DNA of 11,547 nt from Gemmatimonadota bacterium. Its GTDB lineage: Bacteria > Gemmatimonadota > Gemmatimonadetes > Gemmatimonadales > GWC2-71-9. The stretch is from positions 1 to 11,547 of the forward strand of contig JBDHDE010000090.1 of NCBI GenBank assembly GCA_039591655.1. The letters run 5' to 3'. Below, in pieces: positions 185 to 11,547 of the stretch. The translations under genes and the position numbers were made by a program. A model generated the notes under the pieces. The model saw only the letters and a program-made list of their open reading frames with translations. It had not been told where the DNA came from and did not search any database. The first letter of the stretch is position 1. Every line of letters starts with the position of its first letter.

Positions 185-681
185 ATGCAGCAGGTCCGTA
201 ACGCATGGCCGCTCCCGGCGCTCGTCGCGCTGGCATTGGCCGTCCCGGCCGCCGCCCAGGAGCCCCAGGCTCTGGTGATCTCGGCCGAGAACCTCATGGC
301 CGGCGATCAGCAGCACCAGGACCTCGCCCAGCGGGGCGGCGATCCCAACTCGCTGCTCCCCGGCGACGTGGTCCGCTACCAGCTGGTGTTCACCAACATC
401 ATCAGCGACTCGGTCCGCAGGGTCGAGTTCACCGACCCGATCCCCGAGGGCCTGCAGTACGTGGGCGCGAGGACGTCGTCATCGAGTTCTCCAACGACGG
501 CGGACAGACCTACTCAGCACAACCAATGAGAGAAGTGGTCGAGAACGGGTTGCGGGTCATGCGACCCGCCCCGCCTCAGACCTACACGCACATCCGCTGG
601 CGCGTCGGGGGCTGGATTCAGCCCGGCGCGCAGGTAACGGCGGAGTTTCGGGCACGCCTGCCCGAGCCGGGCAACGACTAG
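185..681 (+). pseudogene. Exported single-domain DUF11-like (conserved repeat domain) protein, frameshifted at about 464-466 (true pseudogene or sequence error)
   Basis: Frame of ORF 185..529 gives a Sec signal (..ALALAVPAAA|Q) and DUF11-type motifs LLPGDVVRYQLVFTN and FTDPIPEGLQYVG, then degenerates (ARTSSSSSP). Frame of ORF 205..681 is junk up to 465, then gives the expected continuation REDVVIEFSNDGGQTYS...YTHIRWRVGGWIQPGAQVTAEFRARL to TAG 679-681. Confidence 0.8.
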
Positions 682-724: not shown

Positions 725-1972
725 ATGCAACGGAAGTTCCTCACCAGGCTAGGAGGCTTGGCCCTCGTCGGGCTGTTCCTGGCCGTGGTCGCTGGCCCAG
801 CATCGGCGCAGACGCCGGAGGGCACGACCATCACGAACTTGGCGGTCGTCAGCTGGACGGACGCCAACAGCAACAGCTACGCGCCGGACAGCGCCAGCGT
901 CGACGTGATCGTCGGCTACCAGGCTGGCGTCGACGTGATCGCGGCTGCCGCCTCGGTCACCCCGGCGTCGCCGAGTACAGACGACACGCTGTACTTCGAC
1001 GTGGCGAACATCGGTAACGGCACCGAAGCCGTGCAAATGGACACGAACACCACGGTGGCCGGCGTCATTACCAACGTTCGCTGGTGGTACAACTCCTCCG
1101 TGTACGCGACGCTGGCTGCCCTCAACGCGCAGCTAGCCTTGTCCACGGACTCCCTGGCACAAGGAGACACGATCGCGATCCGGGTGATCTACGACGTGAA
1201 CTCGGGCCAGGGCGGCCAGTCGACCCGCTTCGATCTGACCGCAACCACCCAGCGAGCTGGCTCGCCGGACACCGACACGGATTCGACGTTCATCAGTCCG
1301 CCCGCGGCGTACGCAGTCGCCGTGACGCCGGATGATTCGGCGGTGAGCCGGCTCCCCAGCAACGGGACCAACTACACGCTCCAGTTCACTGTGACCAACA
1401 ACGGAAACAGTGACGAGGACATCGACGTCATCGCGAGCGTGGATCCCGGAACGGCGCTCACCATCGTGTCGGTGGGCGGCCTGGCGGGCGACAGCAACCA
1501 GGTCAACGTCACCGCCGTCGGTGGAACCGCGACGGTCGACGTGGTGGTCTCGGTCGGCGACGTCGCCGCGGGAACACTCGACACGCTGTTCCTGCTGGGT
1601 CGCGTCGTGGCGAACCCCGCTACGACGGACAACGGCAACTACAACGTCACCGTCATTCGCCCGAGCATCAACATCGCGAAGGCGGCCTACCGGGACGATC
1701 AGTCCACACTGATCAACACCGGCGGTGGGGACCGCGTGGTACCTGGTGAGTTCATCCAGTACCTCATCACGGTCACCAACAACGGCGACGCGGACGCCTC
1801 CAGCGTGCACGTCGACGACACCCTGCCGGGCCAGGTGACGTACGACTCGAACACCCCTGACGCCGGGGGCTGGACGATCAACGAGGCGGCGGGCGACATC
1901 GACGCCGATCTGGCGGGAACGCTGGCTCCAGCGGCCAGTCGGTTCTTCTGGGTCCGGGTCCAGATCAACTAG
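725..1972 (+). CDS. Exported DUF11-domain protein, putative major fibre/pilin subunit (signal peptide, N-terminal beta-hairpin, two Ig-like domains, C-terminally truncated DUF11)
   Basis: Sec signal ending GPASA|Q29; T/V/D/A-rich beta composition; two repeats with F.V.N.GN (YFDVANIGNG, QFTVTNNGNS); C-terminal INIAK...VVPGEFIQYLITVTNNG...VDDTLPGQVTY...GTLAPAASRFFWVRVQIN matches the DUF11 (PF01345/TIGR01451) pattern. The pilin role is inference. Confidence 0.9.
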   Translation: MQRKFLTRLGGLALVGLFLAVVAGPASAQTPEGTTITNLAVVSWTDANSNSYAPDSASVDVIVGYQAGVDVIAAAASVTPASPSTDDTLYFDVANIGNGTEAVQMDTNTTVAGVITNVRWWYNSSVYATLAALNAQLALSTDSLAQGDTIAIRVIYDVNSGQGGQSTRFDLTATTQRAGSPDTDTDSTFISPPAAYAVAVTPDDSAVSRLPSNGTNYTLQFTVTNNGNSDEDIDVIASVDPGTALTIVSVGGLAGDSNQVNVTAVGGTATVDVVVSVGDVAAGTLDTLFLLGRVVANPATTDNGNYNVTVIRPSINIAKAAYRDDQSTLINTGGGDRVVPGEFIQYLITVTNNGDADASSVHVDDTLPGQVTYDSNTPDAGGWTINEAAGDIDADLAGTLAPAASRFFWVRVQIN

Positions 1973-1977
1973 GAGCG

Positions 1978-2904
1978 ATGCAGCCTCCTATGAGGTGTTT
2001 CGGGGTTTCGTTCGGTAAGGACGGGCAGAGGCCCGCACGCGGCCTTCGGGTCGTGCGGGTCCTCTGCCTGCTCCTGCTGCTCGGGGTGCTGGCGCCGGCA
2101 GTGCGGGCCCAGACCCCAGCAGGGACGCAGATCAACGCGTTCGCCGTCGTCAGCTACGAGGCACCGAACGGGGCCGTTTTCACCGCGCAGTCCAGCGTAG
2201 TCGTGATGATCGTCGCGCAGGTAGCAGGCGTGGATGTGGAACCGCCGCGCTCGGCTATCGGCGATCCCGGAACGACGGTCGTGTTCAATCACACGCTGGT
2301 CAACGTGGGGAACGGCACTGACGACATCACTGTGACCGCCACCTCTCGAGTGGGTTGGCCGGTACGGGTGCACGTGGACGCCAACACGGACGGCACCCTC
2401 GACGCCGGCGATCCCCAGGTGAGCGGCCCTGTTACACTGGCCATGGCCGACACCGCATACCTCTTGGTCGCGGTGGACGTGCCGGCATCAGCCATCGTTC
2501 GCGGCACGACCGACACGGTCGACGTGGTCGCCACCAGCGGCTTCGACCCGTCCGTGACGGACGCGCTGATCGACGAGCTGTTCATTCAGGATGTCGGCGT
2601 CCTCGTCTCCCTGACGAAGGTGGTGGACCGCCCGACGGCGACCACCGGGGACGTCCTGACCTACACCATCACCTACATCACGACGGGCATCAACACGGCC
2701 ACGAGCGTGCAAATCGCGGACGTGATCCCGGTCGGCGCGACGTACCTCCCCGGCACCCTGCTGTGGAACGGAACGCCGCAGACCGACGCCGCCGATGCCG
2801 ACGCCGGCTTGTTCGACAACCCGGGGAATCGGGTCGTCTTCAGCGTCGGTGACCTCAATGGCGGCGACAGTGGTACGGTGAGCTTCCAGGTGAGGGTCGG
2901 CTGA
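1978..2904 (+). CDS. Exported DUF11-domain protein, paralog of the upstream gene, putative minor subunit (one Ig-like domain plus truncated DUF11); start uncertain (ATG 1978, ATG 1990 or GTG 2053)
   Basis: Hydrophobic signal LCLLLLLGVLAPAVRA|Q; mature N-terminus QTPAGTQINAFAVVSY resembles QTPEGTTITNLAVVSW upstream; both share AGVDV and N.GNGT; DUF11 motifs VSLTKVVDRPTATTGDVLTYTITY, IADVIPVGATYLPGTL, GDLNGGDSGTVSFQVRV. Stop overlaps the next start (TGATG). Confidence 0.88.
   Translation: MQPPMRCFGVSFGKDGQRPARGLRVVRVLCLLLLLGVLAPAVRAQTPAGTQINAFAVVSYEAPNGAVFTAQSSVVVMIVAQVAGVDVEPPRSAIGDPGTTVVFNHTLVNVGNGTDDITVTATSRVGWPVRVHVDANTDGTLDAGDPQVSGPVTLAMADTAYLLVAVDVPASAIVRGTTDTVDVVATSGFDPSVTDALIDELFIQDVGVLVSLTKVVDRPTATTGDVLTYTITYITTGINTATSVQIADVIPVGATYLPGTLLWNGTPQTDAADADAGLFDNPGNRVVFSVGDLNGGDSGTVSFQVRVG
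2022..2070 (+). promoter_or_regulatory. Strong intra-operon RNA hairpin with C(UUCG)G tetraloop (mRNA stabiliser or attenuator candidate)
   Basis: GGCAGAGG(2024-31)/CCTCTGCC(2061-68), CCCGCAC(2032-38)/GTGCGGG(2053-59) and GGCC/GGTC closing TTCG (2045-48). It starts about 50 nt after the 725..1972 stop and has no U-tract. Confidence 0.65.
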
Positions 2905-5900
2905 TGTCGCGCCGCAGCCGCCGGATGGGCTTCAGCCATCTCGCGCGTCGCGCGGTCCAGCTGTTCGTGCTGGCCGCCGCGGTGTGTGGGCCGGTCGAGC
3001 TGCGTGCGCAAACCGTCGTGAGCAACACCGCCGGCGTGTTCTACGGAACCCTCGCCGGCCCGGATTCGAGCTTCTCGAATGCGGCCAACACCAACCTCAT
3101 GGCCCGGATCGGCGAAGAGCTCGAGTACACGATCCAATTCGACAACGGATCTGCCACGACCGAAGCTCGCAGCGTGCAGCTGGTCGACACTCTGCCCACC
3201 GGTCTCGAGTACGTGTCGGCGACACCAGCCGCAGTTATAAGCGGCCAGGTGCTGACATGGGACCTGGGCGATGTCGCGCCGGGTGCTTCCGCACAGGTCG
3301 TCCTCCGGGTGCGGGTGACCCAGGACGTCCGCGACACGCTGCGCGTGCGGAACGTGGCGGTGCTCGGTGCGCTCAATGCTCCGGCCGAGCTGGCCATCGC
3401 ACCCGAGGTCGAGCTGCTCGGTCCCGACGCCTCACTACTCGGCATCGAGAAGACCGCCGATGTCGTGGAGGTCGGGCTGGGTGAGACGGTTCCCTATACC
3501 ATAACGTTGGAGAACACCGGGGTCGTGCCGGTCAGCGACCTGCGGATCCACGACTCGCTCCCGGCGGGCGTGGAGTTCTCGGGGGGATCGCTCCTCGGTG
3601 CAGATTCGATGCAGCTCAGTGGACGTGAGCTGATCTTCTACGTTGCGGGACCGCTGGATCCCGGCGAGACAGTCAGCGTGCACTACGCCGCTGCAGTCGT
3701 CTCCCCAGAGACAGACGTAATCGAGAACCGCGCCTACGCGACTGCCGAGAACAACCTCGTGGTGTCCGAACCGGTAGTAGCCTGGGTGCGTGTGCGGACC
3801 AGCTATCCGATGGAGACCCGGACCGCTATAGGTAAGGTCTGGCTCGACCTGGACGCCGATGGCTACCAGGACAGCGACGAGCAGGGCGTAGCCGGAGTGG
3901 ATATCTGGACCGACGACGGTGAGGTCTCGACCACCGATAGCGAAGGCAAGTTCTCGTACCCCAACGTCCGTCCGGGACACCACGCGTTCCGGCTGGACCG
4001 CAGCCGCAGCACCGTGCCGGCGTCCTACCGCGTCGATGAGGACATCGTCGTTCTCGACGCAGACGGCTGGACGTCGCCGCGCATCACCTTCCGACTCGTC
4101 CCCGCCGAGGCGTTCGTCTCGCAAGTGCAGCTGCCGGTGTCCTGGCGGCTCCACGCACGACCGGTGCACGAGACCCTCGTGCCCCAGGGGGCGCCGCGGG
4201 AGGAGGATCGTGTGACCCTGGCCCGGTTCGAGTCGGGCAGGGCCCAACCGATCCTCGCGTTCGAGAGCCGGAGGTTCCAGGCGCGTCTCGCGCAGCTGCT
4301 CGAAGCGCGGCGCGATTGCCGCCTCGAGATCGCCGGACACGCCGACTACCGTCCGATCCTGCGCGGCCCGTACCGCGACAACTGGGAGCTTTCGTCGGCT
4401 CGAGCTGACTCTCTCGCCGCGTATCTGGAAGCGCTCGGCCTCGCCGCTGGTCAGGTCAGCACCGAGGGCCGTGGCATCAACGAGCCCGTGGCTGCAGGCA
4501 GGGATCCCGTCTCGCTCCAGCTCAACCGCCGGGCCGAGGTGCAGTTGGTCTGCCCCGGCGTGGACGCGCTGACGGCCGAGGCACAGACGGTGGAGTATGA
4601 GGCCCTCATCACCAACCCCTTCGACGTCCCGGTCAGCGGGATCGCCGTGCGGTTCGAGCCCGCCCCCGACTCTGCGGTGGTGCTCCTCGGCGACTCGATC
4701 CTGGGACGCTTCGCTGGCGAGCGGGTAGACCTGCCGCTCGTGCCGCCGCAGGCCGAACTGTTGGTTCGTGCCTGGGCGCCCGCCGGCGCGGACTCTATTG
4801 CCGCCGTGCTGGAGAACGTCGGCCGGCAGCCTGAACGGCTGCTCGCTCAGGTCCACAACCCGATCGTCGAGTACGAGGCGACCAGCCTCGGGAGCGCCGT
4901 GGTGGATAGCGCTCTCCCGCCGACGGTGGCGCCGCTCGGCACCACTATCGACATCGTGCTCCAGCCCGAGCCGGCCGGGTGGCCCGCAGTGACCTACCCG
5001 TTGCCGGAAGGCTGGCAGTTCGTGCCGGGTTCCGCCCGGATCGGCGGAGAGCAAGCACCCGAGCCCAAGGTGGAGCAGGACCGCACCGGCGCCCCGGTGC
5101 TGGCGTGGCACCTCAGGGACCGGGAGATGCAGCCGCTGACCATCACCCTGGTCATGGGCAACGCCATCCCGGTGATGGAAGAGGTGGCGATACCGGCCCT
5201 GCGGACCGCAGCGGACCGGGAGGCCGATGCGGCCAACGCCTTCCTCGCAGGCCCCGCGGTCTCGTTCTTCAACCCCGCCGACGGCAGTGTGCTAGCAAGC
5301 GACCGGCTGTTCGTCGGCGTGAAGGGTGAAGCCGGACAGCCAGTTGTCCTGCTCGACGGCGACTCGGTGATAGGCGAAGCCGTCCTGCGGCCCGACGGCG
5401 TCCACGACTTCATCGGTGTCCCACTGTCTCGCGGGCCCCACCGGCTCCGGGTGCGGATGCACAACTCCTGGAACCAGGACCGCTGGGACAGCCTGGACGT
5501 CCACGTGACCGGTCTGCCTGCCCAGTTCGAGGCCCCGCGCCGCGTCGAGCTGATGGCGGACGGACACAGCATGACCCACGTGCGAGTGCGGGTGCTGGAC
5601 GCCTGGGGCGTGCCGGTGGTGCACCCCACGGCTGTCACCGTCTCGGCGGAGGGCGCCGAGCCCGTGGGCGACGACGCCGATCACTCATCGGTCGGCCATC
5701 AGATCCGCACCAACGCCGCCGGCTGGCTCACAGTCGCCTTGACACCGGGTCGTAACGTGGGCCCCGGCCTGCTGACGCTCACCTACGGCGACGTGATCAG
5801 CGACGTAGAGCTCGAGCTCATCGCCGCCGCGCGGCCCCTCATGCTCACCGGCGTGGGACGCATCGGCGTCGGTGCGGCCCCTGACGCGATGGGCACGATC

Positions 5901-8285
5901 ACGGCGCGCGGGCGCCTGGACCGTCGCACCTCGGTCACCCTGACCTACGACTCCCGCCGGGTCGACGGCGGTCGCGGCGCGTTCGGCCGCGACGTCAACC
6001 CGTTGGACGAGGCGCAGGATCCGATCTTCGGGGACGCCAGCCAGGTTCGCACGGTGAGCGCTTCCCGCGAGGTGTTCTCCGCCCGCATCGAGCGCGGCTT
6101 CGACTGGCTGGCGGCCGGCGACGTGAGCACCAGCGATTTCTCCGCAGGCCTGAGGCTGAACGCCTACCAGCGCTCCCTCTCCGGCGGCGCGGCCCGGATC
6201 ACCACGGGTCCGGTGGTGTGGCGCGGCTTCGGGAGCCTCACCAGCCAGCACATCGCCCAGACACAGATCCGAGGCGACGGGATCTCCGGACCGTATCAGC
6301 TAGCGCTGAACATCCTTCCCGGGACCGACCGAGTCGTCATCGAGACCCGGGCCCGGGAGAACGCCGAGCGCGTCCTGAGCCAGCAGGCGGTGACGCGCCA
6401 CATCGACTATCAGATCGACTACGAGCGGGGCACGCTGATGTTCAAGCGGCCGGTGCCCGCAGCCGATCCCTATGAGAACCCGGTCTTCATCATGGTGACG
6501 TACGAGGCCCAGGGCGGCGGCGAAGACCGCCTGGTGGCCGGTGCCCGGGCGACGTTCGACGCCGGCCGCCTGATCGACGCACCAGGGCTGAGGACCTTCG
6601 AGTTCGGCGTTACCGGCGTCCGCTCCGACGAGCCCACTGGCGCGCACTATCTGGCGGGCGCCGACCTGCGGATGGTGCACACACGGGCCGTGACCCTCGG
6701 TGCGGAGGTCTCCTACTCCGAGACCCCCGACTCCAGCGGCTATGCCGTCGCCGCGGACGGAGAGGTCCGGTTCCTCAGTGGCCACGTGAGCCTGAACGGC
6801 CGCTACATGCGGGTGGACCCGGGGTTCGGCAACCCGTCGAACGTCGGGGTCGTGGCAGGCACCGAGGAGTATGGCTTCGGCGGCGGGCTCAAGTTCGGGC
6901 CCACCCGGCTCCGGGCATCGCACCAGCGCCAGCGCTTCACGCTGCAGGGTGTGGAGCGGTCGCGCACCACGATGGGCATCGAGCAGTCGGTGGGGCGGCA
7001 CCTGAGCCTGGACCTCACCGGCAGCGACGACCGGTTCAGCACCGGTGGCGGCACCGACATCTCGCAGGCCGGCGAGGCGGTGCTCACGTTCTCGCCCATC
7101 TCGAACCTCAGGCTCTGGACCGAGGGCCGCTACCAGTTCAAGCAGGAGGGCAACCTGGTGCTCCCGGACCATCTGGGCGGCGGCGCTGCCTGGCGGGTGA
7201 GCCGCGGAGTGAGCCTCGAGGGCCGCTTCCGCCGGGTCCACCTGCCCGACGGCTCCACTAGCTACTCGGTGGCCAACCTCGGCGTCCAGACCGACCTCGG
7301 CTTCGGCACCAGGGCCTGGGGCAAGTACCGGCTGGCGGGCGGCGCCTCGGGCAGCCACAGCGCCGCGGTGATCGGTCTCAACAACCAGCTGCGCCTCGGC
7401 TCGGCCCTGCAGCTGAACACCATGTTCGAGCGCCGCTTCGGCCTGAGCAGCGCGCCCATCGAGGACCCGGTCCGGGCCCTCCCGTTCGTCCAGGCGGAGG
7501 AGGACTACTGGAGCGCCGGCCTCGGAATCGAGCTGGTGCCGACCAACGGCCCGTACCGCCTCTCCGCCCGCGGCGAGTACCGGGACGGCGATTTCCTCTC
7601 CTCCCAGCTGGCGACGCTGGGTGGCGAGGTCGCGATCAGCCGTTCATTCGCGATTCTGTCGCGCAACGAGTACGTGCGCACCGAGCGCGCCGTGGCCGGC
7701 GGGCCCGGCGAGAGCCGCCGCATCTGGTCCCTGTGGGGTCTCGCCCTGCGGCCCATCAAGACCGACGCAGTCAACATCCTGGGCAAGTTCTCCTGGGTCG
7801 AGGAAGAGAACCCCCTGGGCGGCGGCGTGCTGACACAGGTGGGCGAGGAGCAGCGCATCATCGCAGCAGGCGAGATCATCTTCGCCCCGTTCGCCTCCAC
7901 GGAGCTGGCCGGTCGCTACGCCTACCGGCGGACCCAGGCAGACGCAGTGGTGCAGGACAGCCTGCTCCAGCAGCGCACGTCACACGCCGACTACATCGGC
8001 GCCCGGTTCAGCCAGTACTTCACCCGCTGGCTCGGTGTCCGGGCCGAGGGCCGCTACCTGTACGAGCGCACCAGCCGCGCCCAGCGCTGGGACGCCGCGC
8101 CTTCGCTGGTGCTCCGGCTGATCGAGGGTGTCGAGGTTGAGGGCGGCTACCGGTTCGGCGACCTGCGGGACCCGGACTTCTCGGTGCGCGGCGGCCACGG
8201 CTGGTTCATCACCTTCAGCGCCCGGATCACCGAGCAGATCTTCCCCACCGCCCTGGACTTCTGGCGGCCCCGCTTCAGCCGCTGA
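2904..8285 (+). CDS. Large multidomain outer-membrane protein (1793 aa): DUF11 x2, SdrD-B-like domain, OmpA/MotB-like peptidoglycan-binding domain, further Ig-like domains, large C-terminal beta-barrel
   Basis: Signal ending VELRA|Q36; DUF11 motifs at about 3102-3420 and 3438-3800; IGKVWLDLDADGYQDSDEQGVAGV...TTDSEGKFSY (SdrD-B-like, from 3828); FESGRA...IAGHAD..P....NWELSSARA...GRG..EPVA...NRRAEV (OmpA-C/MotB-like, about 4227-4550); LMADGHS...VRVLDAWGVPV (Big_1/invasin-like, about 5510-5830); about 800 C-terminal residues of Gly/aromatic-rich alternating amphipathic strands. Confidence 0.9.
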   Translation: MSRRSRRMGFSHLARRAVQLFVLAAAVCGPVELRAQTVVSNTAGVFYGTLAGPDSSFSNAANTNLMARIGEELEYTIQFDNGSATTEARSVQLVDTLPTGLEYVSATPAAVISGQVLTWDLGDVAPGASAQVVLRVRVTQDVRDTLRVRNVAVLGALNAPAELAIAPEVELLGPDASLLGIEKTADVVEVGLGETVPYTITLENTGVVPVSDLRIHDSLPAGVEFSGGSLLGADSMQLSGRELIFYVAGPLDPGETVSVHYAAAVVSPETDVIENRAYATAENNLVVSEPVVAWVRVRTSYPMETRTAIGKVWLDLDADGYQDSDEQGVAGVDIWTDDGEVSTTDSEGKFSYPNVRPGHHAFRLDRSRSTVPASYRVDEDIVVLDADGWTSPRITFRLVPAEAFVSQVQLPVSWRLHARPVHETLVPQGAPREEDRVTLARFESGRAQPILAFESRRFQARLAQLLEARRDCRLEIAGHADYRPILRGPYRDNWELSSARADSLAAYLEALGLAAGQVSTEGRGINEPVAAGRDPVSLQLNRRAEVQLVCPGVDALTAEAQTVEYEALITNPFDVPVSGIAVRFEPAPDSAVVLLGDSILGRFAGERVDLPLVPPQAELLVRAWAPAGADSIAAVLENVGRQPERLLAQVHNPIVEYEATSLGSAVVDSALPPTVAPLGTTIDIVLQPEPAGWPAVTYPLPEGWQFVPGSARIGGEQAPEPKVEQDRTGAPVLAWHLRDREMQPLTITLVMGNAIPVMEEVAIPALRTAADREADAANAFLAGPAVSFFNPADGSVLASDRLFVGVKGEAGQPVVLLDGDSVIGEAVLRPDGVHDFIGVPLSRGPHRLRVRMHNSWNQDRWDSLDVHVTGLPAQFEAPRRVELMADGHSMTHVRVRVLDAWGVPVVHPTAVTVSAEGAEPVGDDADHSSVGHQIRTNAAGWLTVALTPGRNVGPGLLTLTYGDVISDVELELIAAARPLMLTGVGRIGVGAAPDAMGTITARGRLDRRTSVTLTYDSRRVDGGRGAFGRDVNPLDEAQDPIFGDASQVRTVSASREVFSARIERGFDWLAAGDVSTSDFSAGLRLNAYQRSLSGGAARITTGPVVWRGFGSLTSQHIAQTQIRGDGISGPYQLALNILPGTDRVVIETRARENAERVLSQQAVTRHIDYQIDYERGTLMFKRPVPAADPYENPVFIMVTYEAQGGGEDRLVAGARATFDAGRLIDAPGLRTFEFGVTGVRSDEPTGAHYLAGADLRMVHTRAVTLGAEVSYSETPDSSGYAVAADGEVRFLSGHVSLNGRYMRVDPGFGNPSNVGVVAGTEEYGFGGGLKFGPTRLRASHQRQRFTLQGVERSRTTMGIEQSVGRHLSLDLTGSDDRFSTGGGTDISQAGEAVLTFSPISNLRLWTEGRYQFKQEGNLVLPDHLGGGAAWRVSRGVSLEGRFRRVHLPDGSTSYSVANLGVQTDLGFGTRAWGKYRLAGGASGSHSAAVIGLNNQLRLGSALQLNTMFERRFGLSSAPIEDPVRALPFVQAEEDYWSAGLGIELVPTNGPYRLSARGEYRDGDFLSSQLATLGGEVAISRSFAILSRNEYVRTERAVAGGPGESRRIWSLWGLALRPIKTDAVNILGKFSWVEEENPLGGGVLTQVGEEQRIIAAGEIIFAPFASTELAGRYAYRRTQADAVVQDSLLQQRTSHADYIGARFSQYFTRWLGVRAEGRYLYERTSRAQRWDAAPSLVLRLIEGVEVEGGYRFGDLRDPDFSVRGGHGWFITFSARITEQIFPTALDFWRPRFSR

Positions 8286-8337: not shown

Positions 8338-8531
8338 TGGTCTCGTTCCGCCGTCTCCTCCCGCGCTCTCCGCGCAGCATCTAGGGTTCGGATCTCCCCC
8401 GCGACCAGCTCGCTGAACTGGGTCAGCGTGCGGCTGAGGGCCGCAACCTTGGCACCGGTAGTGGCCGACTCGGCGGGCTCAGTGAAGCGGCTCACGCCGT
8501 GGCCCCGCCGACACACGACGTCTATCTTCAC
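8334..8531 (-). pseudogene. Probable 3' remnant of a PqiC/ABC-transport auxiliary lipoprotein-like gene (or a small hypothetical protein)
   Basis: SRFTEPAESATTGAKVAALSRTLTQFSELVAGEIRTL resembles the last strand plus amphipathic helix of PqiC-family proteins as I recall them. No signal peptide or lipobox, and an in-frame TGA lies immediately before the GTG at 8531. Resemblance judged by eye. Confidence 0.4.
8523..8528 (+). promoter_or_regulatory. Candidate sigma70-type -10 element for the M24 peptidase gene
   Basis: TATCTT (TAnnnT) 30 nt upstream of ATG 8559 in GC-rich DNA; the same hexamer precedes the next gene; no good -35 element. Confidence 0.35.
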
Positions 8532-8558
8532 TCACGCCCCGATCCGAGAGCTATCACG

Positions 8559-9914
8559 ATGCTGTCACGAAGCTGGCTCCTAGTGTTTCCCGCTGCGCTC
8601 CTCGCTGCCCCGGCTGCCGCCCAGACCGTCACGCCCGAGCGCCCCTTCGGCACGCTGCGGGAACAGGCGGCCGTGCAACAAGCGTGGCTTGAGGAGCGCC
8701 TCGAGACCGTGCTCCCCCGCCTCATGCGGGAGTACGACGTCCAGATGTGGATTATCCCCATGCGGGAGTACAACGAGGACCCCCTCTTCAAGGCGCTGGC
8801 AGCGCCCACCGGCTTCGCCGCTCGGCGGCGCACGGTATTCATCTTCTTCGACCGCGGGCCGGAGGAGGGTGTGGAGCGGCTCACCATCGGCGGAGGCTCG
8901 CAGGGCGGCGTGTACGAGGTGATCCGCGAGACCGAGCAGGCGCCCGACGGCCGCCCCAGGGAGTTCTGGGGCCAGGACCAGTGGCAGGTGGTGGCCAAAG
9001 CCATCCGGGAGCGGGACCCCAGGAACATCGCGGTCAACATCTCCCGCGATCTCAGGTTCGCCGACGGGCTGAGCGCCGGCGAGTGGGAGCAGCTCCAGGA
9101 GGCGTTGGGCCCCGACCTGCTCTCACGGGTGGTGCGGGCCGAGCAGATGGCCCTGGACTACCTCGCCATCCGCGTGCCGGCGATGGATTCCACCTACCGC
9201 CGGATGGAGCAGCTGGTGCACGAGCTCATCGCCACCATGTTCTCCAGCGAGGTGATCACCCCCGGGGTCACGACCACCGAGGACGTGCGCTGGTGGTTCC
9301 GCCAGCGTCTCAACGATCTCGGCCTCGGCACCTGGTTCCACGCGTCGGTGGGCATCCAGCGACGGGGGACGAGCATGGCCGACTCGACCGACCCCGTGAT
9401 CCAGCGCGGCGACGTGCTCCACTGCGACGTGGGCGTTACCGCCCTGCGGCTCAACACCGACACCCAGCACATGGGCTACGTGCTGCGGGAGGGGGAGACC
9501 GACGCCCCAGCGGGACTCGAGGAGGCGCTGTACAATGCCAACCGGCTGCAGGACATCCTGCTCGCCGAGATGCGCCCGGGTCGCACCGGCAACGAGATCC
9601 TCTTCTCCGCCCTGGAGGCGATGCGGCAAGCAGGGATCGATGGCACGATCTACACCCACTCCATCGGCGAGCACGGCCACGGAGCGGGCCCCCTCATTGG
9701 GCTGTGGGATCGGCAGGACGGCGCGCCGGGTCGTGGCGACGTCACACTGCGGGCCGGCACCTGGCACTCCATCGAGCTTCAGGCCACGACGCCCGTGCCG
9801 GAGTGGGACGACCAGCGGGTCCGCATGATGCTGGAGGAGGAGGCGGCGCTCACGCCGCAGGGCGAGATGCGCTGGGTGCTGCGGCGCCAATCCGCGCTGC
9901 ACCTGGTGCGGTAG
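8559..9914 (+). CDS. Exported M24-family metallopeptidase (Xaa-Pro aminopeptidase-like), 451 aa
   Basis: ATG 8559 (GAGAG upstream) gives the Sec signal MLSRSWLLVFPAALLAAPAAA|Q, preferred over the GTG at 8499. Pita-bread-fold metal ligands appear in order: GDVLHCDVG, NTDTQH, YTHSIGEHGH, SIEL, LEEE. Confidence 0.9.
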   Translation: MLSRSWLLVFPAALLAAPAAAQTVTPERPFGTLREQAAVQQAWLEERLETVLPRLMREYDVQMWIIPMREYNEDPLFKALAAPTGFAARRRTVFIFFDRGPEEGVERLTIGGGSQGGVYEVIRETEQAPDGRPREFWGQDQWQVVAKAIRERDPRNIAVNISRDLRFADGLSAGEWEQLQEALGPDLLSRVVRAEQMALDYLAIRVPAMDSTYRRMEQLVHELIATMFSSEVITPGVTTTEDVRWWFRQRLNDLGLGTWFHASVGIQRRGTSMADSTDPVIQRGDVLHCDVGVTALRLNTDTQHMGYVLREGETDAPAGLEEALYNANRLQDILLAEMRPGRTGNEILFSALEAMRQAGIDGTIYTHSIGEHGHGAGPLIGLWDRQDGAPGRGDVTLRAGTWHSIELQATTPVPEWDDQRVRMMLEEEAALTPQGEMRWVLRRQSALHLVR

Positions 9915-10006: not shown

Positions 10007-10075
10007 TCACCTTCGCACCTGCAGCAACTGCGGTTGGGAGCTAGATGGGGAGTTGGACTTACCAGTGAGGATTCC

Positions 10076-11547
10076 ATGAACAGACACAAGTTCTACGGCC
10101 TTGCGGCCTTGGCCCTGTTTGCGGTGGGCTGCGCCTCAAGCGGCCAGCAGACAGCCACGCAGGCGATGCCGGCGGCGGCGCCAGAGAAGATGGCAGTCGC
10201 GGCCGAACTGGCCATCAAACCGATCGAGCCGCATCGCTTCGACATGGGCAAGATGTGGACCTTCGAGAACGCCCCGGTGGACTACTTCGAGGAGGCCTAT
10301 GGGTTCCGCGCCACCGATGAGTGGCTGGAGACGGCGCGCATGGCCGCGCTGCGGATTCCCGGCTGCACGGCGTCGTTCGTGTCCGCCAATGGCCTGGTGA
10401 TGACCAACCATCACTGCGGCCGGGGCCACGTCTCGCGGGTGACCCGCGAGGGCGAGAACCTGCTGGACGAGGGGTTCTACGCCGAGACGCTCGAGGACGA
10501 GCGCCAGGCACCCAACATGTGGGCCGACCAGATGATCGTGCTGGAGGACGTCACTCAGCTGGTGCGCTCCGCCATCGATCCGACGGCTACCGATGACCAG
10601 CAGGTGGAGGCCCGGGATGCCCGGATGGAGGCAGTCGGTGACAGCGCCAGCGTGGCGCACGACCTGCAGTGCAGCGTGACAGAGCTGTACAACGGCGGCA
10701 AGTACTCGATGTACTGCTTCAAGCGGTACACCGACGTGCGGCTGGTCATGGCCCCCGAGCTCCAGATCGGGTACTTCGGCGGCGACCCCGACAACTTCAC
10801 CTACCCGCGGTACAACCTGGACTTCACGTTCTTCCGCGTGTACGAGAACGGCGAGCCCGTTACGCCGCAGACCTACTTCGAGTTCGACACCGACGGCGTG
10901 GCCGAGGGCGACGCGGTCTTCGTGATCGGGAACCCCGGCTCCACGGAGCGTTTGAGCACCTTCGCCCAGCTCGAGTTCAACCGGGATTACCGCGAGCCGT
11001 TCATCACGCGGCTGCTCCAGAGCCGGACGGACATCCTGAAGATGTACATGGAACACCACCCGGAGGAGCGCGCCAATTACATCAACCAGTGGTTCGGCTG
11101 GATGAACAGCTTCAAGCTGTATGCCGGCCGCACTAAGGCGCTGAACGATCCGGAGATCATGGGCCGCAAGCTGGGCTGGGAGATGCAGTTCCGGCAGGCG
11201 ATCCAGAGCAACCCCTCCCTCAACCGGCAGTACGGCACCCTGTGGGACGAGATCGCACAGCTGCGCGAGGAGATGGGCCAGCACTATCCGGTGCTGATGG
11301 CTCTGGCCACAGGCGGCGGGATCCGGGCCCGGACCCTGGGCACCGCGGCGCAGATGGTGCAGTACGCACAGATGGTCCAGGCGGGTGGCCCGGAGGACGA
11401 GGCACAGCAGCTGCGGGCGCGGATCGAGGGCGCCGAGATCAACACCGACCTCGACGGCCACATGCTGGAGGCGCAGATCGCCGACGTGGCACACCTGCTG
11501 GGGGCCAGCGATCCCTTCACACAGATGGTCCTGCAGGGTCGCAGCCC
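10076..11547 (+). CDS. S46-family dipeptidyl peptidase (DPP7/DPP11-like), predicted lipoprotein; 3'-truncated by the window end
   Basis: Absent from the ORF track because it has no stop in the window. GAGGA RBS at 10067-71; [19 protein letters not shown]19 lipobox; S46 motifs [25 protein letters not shown] (catalytic His), [34 protein letters not shown] (catalytic Asp), [12 protein letters not shown]. The catalytic Ser lies beyond the window. Confidence 0.93.

Follow-up and report, generated by a model that had tools for sequence, protein, structure and literature searches.

Pairs of polypeptides that ligate spontaneously through an isopeptide bond have been made in the laboratory by splitting CnaA/CnaB-type domains of Gram-positive pilins. 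In isopeptag/pilin-C, SpyTag/SpyCatcher and SnoopTag/SnoopCatcher, one reactive residue is carried by a short peptide and the other two by the remaining domain. Here we describe an operon of four genes, named 'up', A, B and C, on contig JBDHDE010000090.1 of a Gemmatimonadota genome bin (the window, which is the entire contig of 11,547 nucleotides, 11.5 kb). Unlike the engineered Tag/Catcher pairs, the DUF11 domains encoded by this operon appear to be cut naturally, the cut being repeated in several proteins of one operon and probably used for a polymer. An earlier note on this DNA had proposed that subunits A and B each keep one lysine at an isopeptide position and that the matching asparagine is brought by a hairpin of another subunit.

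The DUF11 family was renamed CLIPPER in a 2025 paper in which the crystal structure 9IFR revealed an intramolecular isopeptide bond between Lys715 and Asn806, with Asp748 as the presumed catalyst (PMC12617251). The crystallized domain comes from B9T28_05395 of Acinetobacter silvestris, a single-chain fibrillar adhesin, and the same account places the Lys of CLIPPER on the first strand and its Asn on the last hairpin (PMC12617251). The K/D/N isopeptide pattern that the earlier note attributed to DUF11 is the one described for this structure. A and B resemble the 9IFR domain in their Pfam family, in the positions of the Lys (first strand) and of the Asp, and in the N-x-A motif on the last hairpin. 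The combination of a CLIPPER stalk with an OmpA-like anchor found in the reference adhesin is also present here, and the second domain of C is an ordinary complete member of the family (K183/D217/N275). They differ from 9IFR in that the domain of A and B breaks off behind the F strand, with the last hairpin carried at the start of another polypeptide, behind a signal peptide of its own, and in that the predicted bond would link two chains. The 2025 paper surveyed intramolecular bonds only, and the words 'split' and 'strand complementation' are absent from its text (PMC12617251).

As described in its own report, the BsaA fibre of Clostridium perfringens is the nearest working analogue, with an apparently different fold. 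BsaA, of the TasA family, assembles by 'donor strand exchange and lock' with an N35-K74 isopeptide bond and E56, and mutation of any residue of the triad was reported to abolish oligomers (10.1101/2024.11.04.621531). Both systems have an N-terminal Asn donor, an acceptor with a Lys and an acidic catalyst, and no sortase, features that are known here at the level of sequence. In the published description BsaA is a homopolymer of a monoderm that needs the SipW signal peptidase and type IV pilus genes, whereas here the host is diderm, there are several subunits, the catalyst would be an Asp and a complete hairpin would be donated. At E up to 0.01, none of the Pfam families matched by A, B and C was of the TasA type. 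In the archaeal thread protein Saci_0406, donor-strand complementation is combined with a proposed isopeptide bond between the alpha-amino group of Asp24 and Asn57 of the subunit two along (PMC9715654). That account shares with the present case the donor strands and an inter-subunit bond that would form with loss of ammonia by an Asn side chain and for which no enzyme is known; it differs in that the system is archaeal and that neither a Lys nor a CLIPPER domain is involved in the bond as described there.

By analogy, the subunit logic resembles that of chaperone-usher pili (type 1 Fim and P pili). In both cases a tip adhesin has an acceptor and no donor, and the operon runs from tip to adaptor to shaft and then to an outer-membrane component. 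Unlike in these pili, the donor is a two-strand hairpin and not a single strand, and a covalent lock is predicted here while there is none in chaperone-usher pili. Searches of the own genome (completeness 95.24%, the basis of all gene-absence searches) gave no match for the PapD-type chaperone (PF00345) or the usher (PF00577), for which control genomes matched, and none for sortase (PF04203). The PapD and usher families were likewise absent among the open reading frames (ORFs) of the window, and no LPXTG motif (LP.TG) occurs in A, B or C. Because sortase, PapD-type chaperone, usher and LPXTG motif were all missing in these searches, the system is neither a sortase pilus nor a chaperone-usher pilus, in agreement with the fibre having been called sortase-free. 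Full-text literature searches, supplements not covered, found no published account of split DUF11/CLIPPER fibres. Two candidates were rejected: the tafi paper concerns DUF1102, surfaced only through the word start 'DUF11' and has no split domains, and the grappling-hook protein of Litorilinea is a single chain with 49 DUF11 domains and is not split.

Truncated CLIPPER domains and N-terminal hairpins

Residue numbers are those of the precursors, and truncation of a domain was judged on the end positions of its profile match. The C-terminal domains of A and B matched both Pfam DUF11 (PF01345; 44.0 bits for A and 34.8 bits for B, cut-off 24.6) and TIGR01451 (36.3 and 40.2 bits, cut-off 24). The Pfam matches extended over residues 336-413 of A and 210-307 of B, corresponding to profile positions 11-83 and 2-84 of 114. 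A profile of our own was built from 63 complete CLIPPER domains of the same gene clusters (length 129, with the Lys at position 12, the Asp at 46 and the Asn at 104); on it, A covered positions 22-87 and B positions 8-94, both matches ending at the C-terminus of the protein. The two domains stop about 30 profile positions early, just before the Asn hairpin. As the matches end before position 104, the Asn hairpin is missing from its usual place. A and B are therefore truncated CLIPPER members, without the last hairpin in the same chain. The complete one-chain domain of C served as an internal reference for these split domains: it covered positions 2-128 of the same profile (E = 1.9e-54), with the Asn motif 'VIENRAYAT'.

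The Lys and the Asp of the triad are present in both truncated domains. In an AlphaFold2 (AF2) model of A, the last domain has K319 ('INIAKAAYR') in its first strand (mature strand 287-295, K319 being mature K291), and K214 of B ('VSLTKVVDR') aligns with the Lys of 'LSLEKTA' in our profile, so that the placement on the first DUF11 strand put forward earlier is borne out. D365 of A ('VDDTLPG') and D248 of B ('IADVIPV') are indeed kept in the D.[LI]P motif, and the K-to-D spacing in B is 34 residues (33 in 9IFR). Conservation was assessed in families of 121 sequences, made up of the 120 best relatives and the window's own sequence. Of the 121 A-type sequences, 119 have Lys at the K319 column and 120 have Asp at the D365 column; for B-type sequences, Lys was found at the K214 column in 112 of 121 and Asp at the D248 column in 115. 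No Lys column of the A family other than that of K319 exceeds 60/121. On the evidence of profiles and alignments, K319 and K214 are almost certainly the CLIPPER (DUF11) isopeptide lysines.

Structure searches contributed little to the assignment. Foldseek against the PDB returned multi-immunoglobulin (Ig) proteins only, with TMq <=0.40, and was uninformative on membership; a wide VIA-align search gave generic beta-sandwich matches and was equally uninformative on family membership. VIA-align did retrieve 9IFR (Z 8.8, root-mean-square deviation 3.2, 111 aligned residues), but on the middle domain of A (model residues 165-283), and the best row for the last domain of A was the AP-4 mu4 domain (Z 11.4). 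A phmmer search of B against PDB sequences found designed trefoils only, which are chance matches.

Complete CLIPPER domains are closed by an N-x-A motif ('VLENRAVATAE' in our profile), and a hairpin with this motif follows the signal peptides of A, B and C. The signal-peptide cuts, after ASA28 in A and VRA44 in B, were assigned by eye, without a prediction tool; they give mature proteins of 387 and 264 residues, respectively. The residues directly behind the signal peptide are 'TPEGTTITNLAVVSW' in A, 'TPAGTQINAFAVVSY' in B and 'TVVSNTAGVFY' in C. In the AF2 model the strands of the A hairpin span mature residues 7-14 and 27-34. The Asn of the motif is N38 in A and N41 in C. In B the canonical position is taken by Ala (A54) and an Asn sits one residue earlier (N53), where its side chain should, on a strand, face the opposite way from the canonical Asn. 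The N-terminal strand of 'up' has its Asn in 64 of 67 relatives. The proposal that the Asn arrives on a donor hairpin agrees with the N-x-A hairpin behind the signal peptide and with the natural fusions and splits described below, in which the hairpin is the missing end of the domain of the preceding protein. It would apply to N38 of A and to N41 of C, the latter being the likely partner of K214, but probably not to the hairpin of B, whose canonical position is Ala.

The conservation foreseen for K, D and N holds for K319 and D365 and partly for N38, whose column in A-type sequences is N in 93, S in 25, D in 2 and a gap in 1 of 121; in species genomes the equivalent residue is almost always N. 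The last residue of A, N415, was observed to covary with N38 (N/N in 83, S/K in 25 and D/D in 2 of 121 sequences). The S/K forms may represent a single clade, and in species genomes N38 was also found together with a C-terminal Lys in A.

Natural fusions, fissions and tip-like proteins

The acceptor domain of B was detected in 57 loci (56 relatives and the window). In 45 of these, B is fused in frame to C: the F strand ('FQVRV') is followed by a short linker and then by the hairpin of C. K, D and N-x-[AGS], the latter no more than 28 residues past the F strand, are present in all 45 fused proteins, and an alignment of 36 of the fused forms shows no variation at K171, D205 or N272. In the 12 other loci, including the window, a stop codon and a new signal peptide are found exactly between the F strand of B and the hairpin of C; K and D are retained in 11 of the 12, and the Asn of the C hairpin in 11 of the 12. 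In the window, the TGA of B overlaps the ATG of C ('TGATG', 2902-2906). By this comparison, the window shows a gene fission at exactly the point where the F strand of one domain gives way to its last hairpin. Because the hairpin stands directly behind the F strand of B in the fused forms, N41 of C would pair with K214 of B in the unsplit domain, and N41 of C is most likely the partner of K214.

A is fused to B in P0069, P0071 and an ORF of L060 (L060:1193-3268), giving proteins of 672-692 residues in which the hairpin of B, without a signal peptide, stands straight behind the last strand of A. Among them are both of the A-type sequences that lack K319 (2 of 121, with Q and A at its position); in these fusions Thr replaces the B-type Lys, and S or T stands where the Asn of the junction hairpin is expected. 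As both the acceptor Lys and the junction Asn are missing, the two were lost together, and the A-B fusion lineage seems to have given up the triad. Fusions of 'up' to A do not exist, the long A frames being stop-to-stop run-ins. Joint retention or loss was also apparent in the complete CLIPPER domains of these loci, of which 96 have both K and N, 13 have K without N, 2 have N without K and 18 have neither (n=129, being the domains in which the Lys position aligned to a residue, with 50 more that have a gap there left out; the sequences are related and the counts hence not independent). Judged by these counts, the triad behaves as a unit in complete CLIPPER domains of these loci.

An extra conserved gene is found upstream of 'up' in 18 of 18 fully flanked related loci, and its product carries variable adhesin-like domains, such as DUF2341 and Laminin_G_3 in L002 (L002:6978-8924). 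Upstream of A, 45 loci yielded 46 such tip-like ORFs, every one of which ends at an acceptor F strand and carries the D.[LIVM][PAS] motif; the Lys-site pattern was matched in 36, and the hairpin motif was found in the first 140 residues of none (0/46). The window contig starts just upstream of 'up', and a tip gene would fall outside it. A 1979-residue frame with domains or repeats similar to those of tip-like proteins was noticed on another contig of the own genome (C71).

The tip-like protein is an acceptor only, C is a donor with no open acceptor, and the fused B-C protein has one surplus donor. Since the numbers of donors and acceptors balance only if hairpins enter other chains, complementation would occur in trans. 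Combined, these arrangements make it likely that the domains of A and B are split and are completed by another chain.

The proposed fibre and competing explanations

We propose that each mature N-terminal hairpin would insert in trans into the C-terminal CLIPPER domain of the more distal subunit, where it would be locked by a spontaneous Lys-Asn isopeptide bond with the Asp as catalyst. The chain would run from the tip-like adhesin, an acceptor only, through 'up', A (possibly in many copies) and B to C, whose OmpA-like domain and C-terminal membrane part would anchor the fibre at the envelope. The joints likely to be covalent here are those of the tip Lys with the Asn of 'up', of K319/D365 of A with N38 of the next A (K319 most likely pairs with N38 of another A) and of K214/D248 of B with N41 of C. 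Joints into 'up', which has no acceptor Lys, and of B into A, with Ala at the Asn position, would be non-covalent. Because 'up' lacks the acceptor Lys, not all joints of the fibre would be covalent, and because A54 occupies the canonical Asn position of B, the A-to-B joint is probably non-covalent in this genome. That the CLIPPER domains are split, filled in trans by the hairpin of the next operon protein and locked by the Lys-Asn isopeptide bond is, in our estimate, slightly better than an even proposition. We hold more tentatively, at just under even, that Gemmatimonadota, and possibly other diderm phyla, make a multi-subunit fibre of natural Tag/Catcher pairs that is self-assembled in a fixed order and self-ligated without sortase or chaperone-usher machinery. 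The same tentative standing applies, as part of that proposal, to such natural pairs within one operon being tip with 'up', A with A and B with C, with a C-terminal 'Catcher' and an N-terminal 'Tag' per subunit.

A number of observations in this and the following paragraphs weigh against the proposed fibre, and some of them favour other explanations. Pfam scans of the four N-terminal 40-residue stretches gave no match even at E up to 10, and our CLIPPER profile matched the N-terminus of only 20 of the 120 A-type relatives, weakly, and did not match that of A of the window. As these profile matches are non-significant, the identity of the hairpins rests on the N-x-A motif together with the natural fusions. 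Covariation, calculated as mutual information with average product correction over 178 distinct A-type sequences, was weak and noisy between the hairpin and the last domain; the top pairs (37-57 and 39-58) lie within the hairpin. Furthermore, the mid-protein position of the OmpA-like domain leaves the periplasmic parts of C ambiguous.

The donor strands could also be complemented in trans with no bond being formed, the Lys and the Asp being kept for folding or packing, an explanation that we consider unlikely but of real weight. The 25 A-type proteins with Ser at the N38 position keep K319, together with Asp (24) or Glu (one) at the D365 position. The equivalent position of B-type hairpins is N in 51, S in 39 and A in 17 of 121 (S or A in 56), Ala being found in B of the window itself. 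'up' has no conserved acceptor Lys (no Lys column above 24/67), and in 35 of 67 relatives Asn takes the place of its motif Asp. From the published descriptions, some DUF11 domains have no bond (PMC12617251), and BsaA oligomers survive sodium dodecyl sulphate even without theirs (10.1101/2024.11.04.621531). A role in folding or packing fits less well with the B-C junction domains, in which K, D and N are all kept in 45/45 fused and 11/12 split forms, with the joint loss of K and N in the A-B fusion lineage, and with the rarity of complete domains having K without N (13 vs 96). In addition, a canonical N or D is present on at least one of the A-type and B-type hairpins, those able to enter the domain of A, in 30 of 30 loci in which both hairpins were recognised.

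In a second alternative, which we regard as improbable, the domains would be circularly permuted in cis: the hairpin of each subunit would fill its own C-terminal domain, K319-N38 would be an intramolecular staple and the products would be stable ring-closed monomers. An AF2 monomer of mature A, with a mean predicted local distance difference test (pLDDT) of 94.2, sets its own hairpin at pLDDT 92-95; the predicted template modelling score of this model is only 0.73. Two whole domains lie between hairpin and acceptor, making closure in cis topologically possible, and FimA, the type 1 pilin, is reported as a self-complemented monomer or as a polymer (PMC6615685). As a control on whether a surplus hairpin loses confidence, the N-terminal part of a fused B-C protein (L035, 419 residues, 36 sequences) was modelled with AF2; the surplus hairpin kept a pLDDT of 85-92 from residue 11, with residues 1-10 at 64, an outcome that favours neither cis nor trans. 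However, closure in cis leaves unfilled the acceptor of the tip-like proteins, which have no hairpin of their own. Each of the 45 fused B-C proteins has its acceptor completed by the hairpin next in the chain, and the N-terminal hairpin is partnerless in cis; in the A-B fusions it is the hairpin of B, not that of A, that stands behind the last strand of A; and B of the window, without a canonical Asn, would leave K214 partnerless in cis.

The earlier note had stressed that each mature subunit has exactly one lysine. The lysines of A are K4, inside the signal peptide, and K319, and those of B are K14, in the N-terminal leader, and K214, with no others; the statement is correct for both window proteins and does not describe a family trait, as a single mature Lys was found in 26 of 121 A-type and 55 of 121 B-type sequences, and A-type relatives have 3.6 mature Lys on average. 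The other proteins of the window contain 23 Lys in 2768 residues (0.83%), and at this background the probability of at most one Lys is 0.17 for A and 0.36 for B. One Lys per protein falls within chance for a Lys-poor genome, and the caution that scarce Lys makes a single Lys weak proof was well placed; in the alignments it is the position of the Lys, not the number, that is non-random. An explanation by composition only, with the single Lys of a GC-rich (65-72% across the window), Lys-poor proteome being an ordinary DUF11-repeat residue of a monomeric adhesin, is most improbable, as it leaves unexplained why the domains are truncated, why hairpins stand at the N-termini, why fusions and fissions occur and why the order up-A-B-C is conserved.

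Gene neighbourhood and significance

The gene order up-A-B-C is conserved in most of 80 related loci. Of 201 genomes sampled from the phylum, 19 carry an A-type gene, counting the genome of the window. Relatives of 'up' are about 170 residues long. In this assembly, 'up' is split into two frames, 19 nucleotides being missing behind position 465 in comparison with the nearest relative, L001. The 19 letters are present at exactly that site in 3 of 3 bridging contigs (X1, X3 and X5) from public runs of two studies; because all three carry them, the most likely cause of the frame break is a faulty assembly or a rare variant, rather than the death of the gene. The features of the window are collected in Table 1.

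Table 1. Coordinates of the genes, domains and key residues in the window
Feature	Position	Strand	Description
'up', small first subunit	185..681	+	Signal peptide, N-terminal strand with conserved Asn, DUF11-like domain without acceptor Lys
Subunit A	725..1972	+	415 residues; signal peptide, candidate donor hairpin, two Ig-like middle domains, truncated C-terminal CLIPPER acceptor
A signal peptide	725-808	+	Cut placed after ASA28
A candidate donor hairpin	812..910	+	Residues 30-62, 'TPEGTTITNLAVVSW...VDVI'; N38 (836-838) in N-x-A motif
A acceptor domain	1661..1969	+	Residues 313-415; CLIPPER minus last hairpin; K319 (1679-1681, AAG), D365 (1817-1819), N415 (1967-1969)
Subunit B	1978..2904	+	308 residues; leader/signal peptide, candidate donor hairpin, one middle domain, truncated CLIPPER acceptor
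B leader and signal peptide	1978-2109	+	Cut placed after VRA44
B candidate donor hairpin	2113-2211	+	N53 (2134-2136); Ala54 at canonical Asn position (2137-2139)
B acceptor domain	2590..2901	+	Residues 205-308; ends at F strand ('FQVRVG'); K214 (2617-2619, AAG), D248 (2719-2721)
Protein C, putative anchor	2904..8285	+	1793 residues; signal peptide, candidate donor hairpin, CLIPPER and SdrD_B domains
C candidate donor hairpin	3009..3095	+	Residues 36-64, 'QTVVSNTAGVFY...'; N41 (3024-3026)
Complete CLIPPER domain of C	3420..3800	+	Residues 173-299; K183 (3450-3452), D217 (3552-3554), N275 (3726-3728)
OmpA-like peptidoglycan-binding domain of C	4278-4526	+	Residues 459-541
C-terminal part of C	5781-8282	+	Residues about 960-1793; resembles outer-membrane protein
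M24 metallopeptidase gene	8499-9914		Downstream of operon
S46 dipeptidyl-peptidase gene	10034-11545		Downstream of operon

The C-terminal 830 residues of C gave no Pfam match; in language-model features this part resembles clusters named 'outer membrane protein' (score 0.97). The C proteins of relatives were seen to finish with a conserved 'FWR.R' motif. The M24 and S46 peptidase genes are also found downstream of the operon in L001 and not in the other loci; as they adjoin it in L001 alone among these, they are probably unrelated neighbours. At the other end of the window, a small ORF with a zinc-ribbon-like look, owing to two C..C pairs ('CPTC...CPKC'), is present with its 3' end only (positions 2-181, frame 2) and stops just before 'up'. 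Upstream of the operon in the 18 fully flanked loci, an NtrC-type sigma-54 activator was seen in 11 and a GAF/PAS histidine kinase in 8 (L002:5286-6764 and L002:2926-4926, minus strand). A sigma-54 promoter in the window was rejected, the 11 consensus matches being not above chance (11.0 expected).

If the proposal is true, this double-membraned bacterium would have a pilus-like fibre whose subunits need no enzyme for either assembly or covalent ligation, donor-strand complementation being joined with the spontaneous Lys-Asn isopeptide bond of CLIPPER domains. Both principles are known; their combination was not found in print by the full-text searches. The 2025 survey of intramolecular isopeptide domains would be extended to intermolecular use. 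With the same domain fused in 45 loci and split in 12, the family would also provide a natural origin for Tag/Catcher-like pairs and may be a source of new orthogonal protein-ligation pairs.

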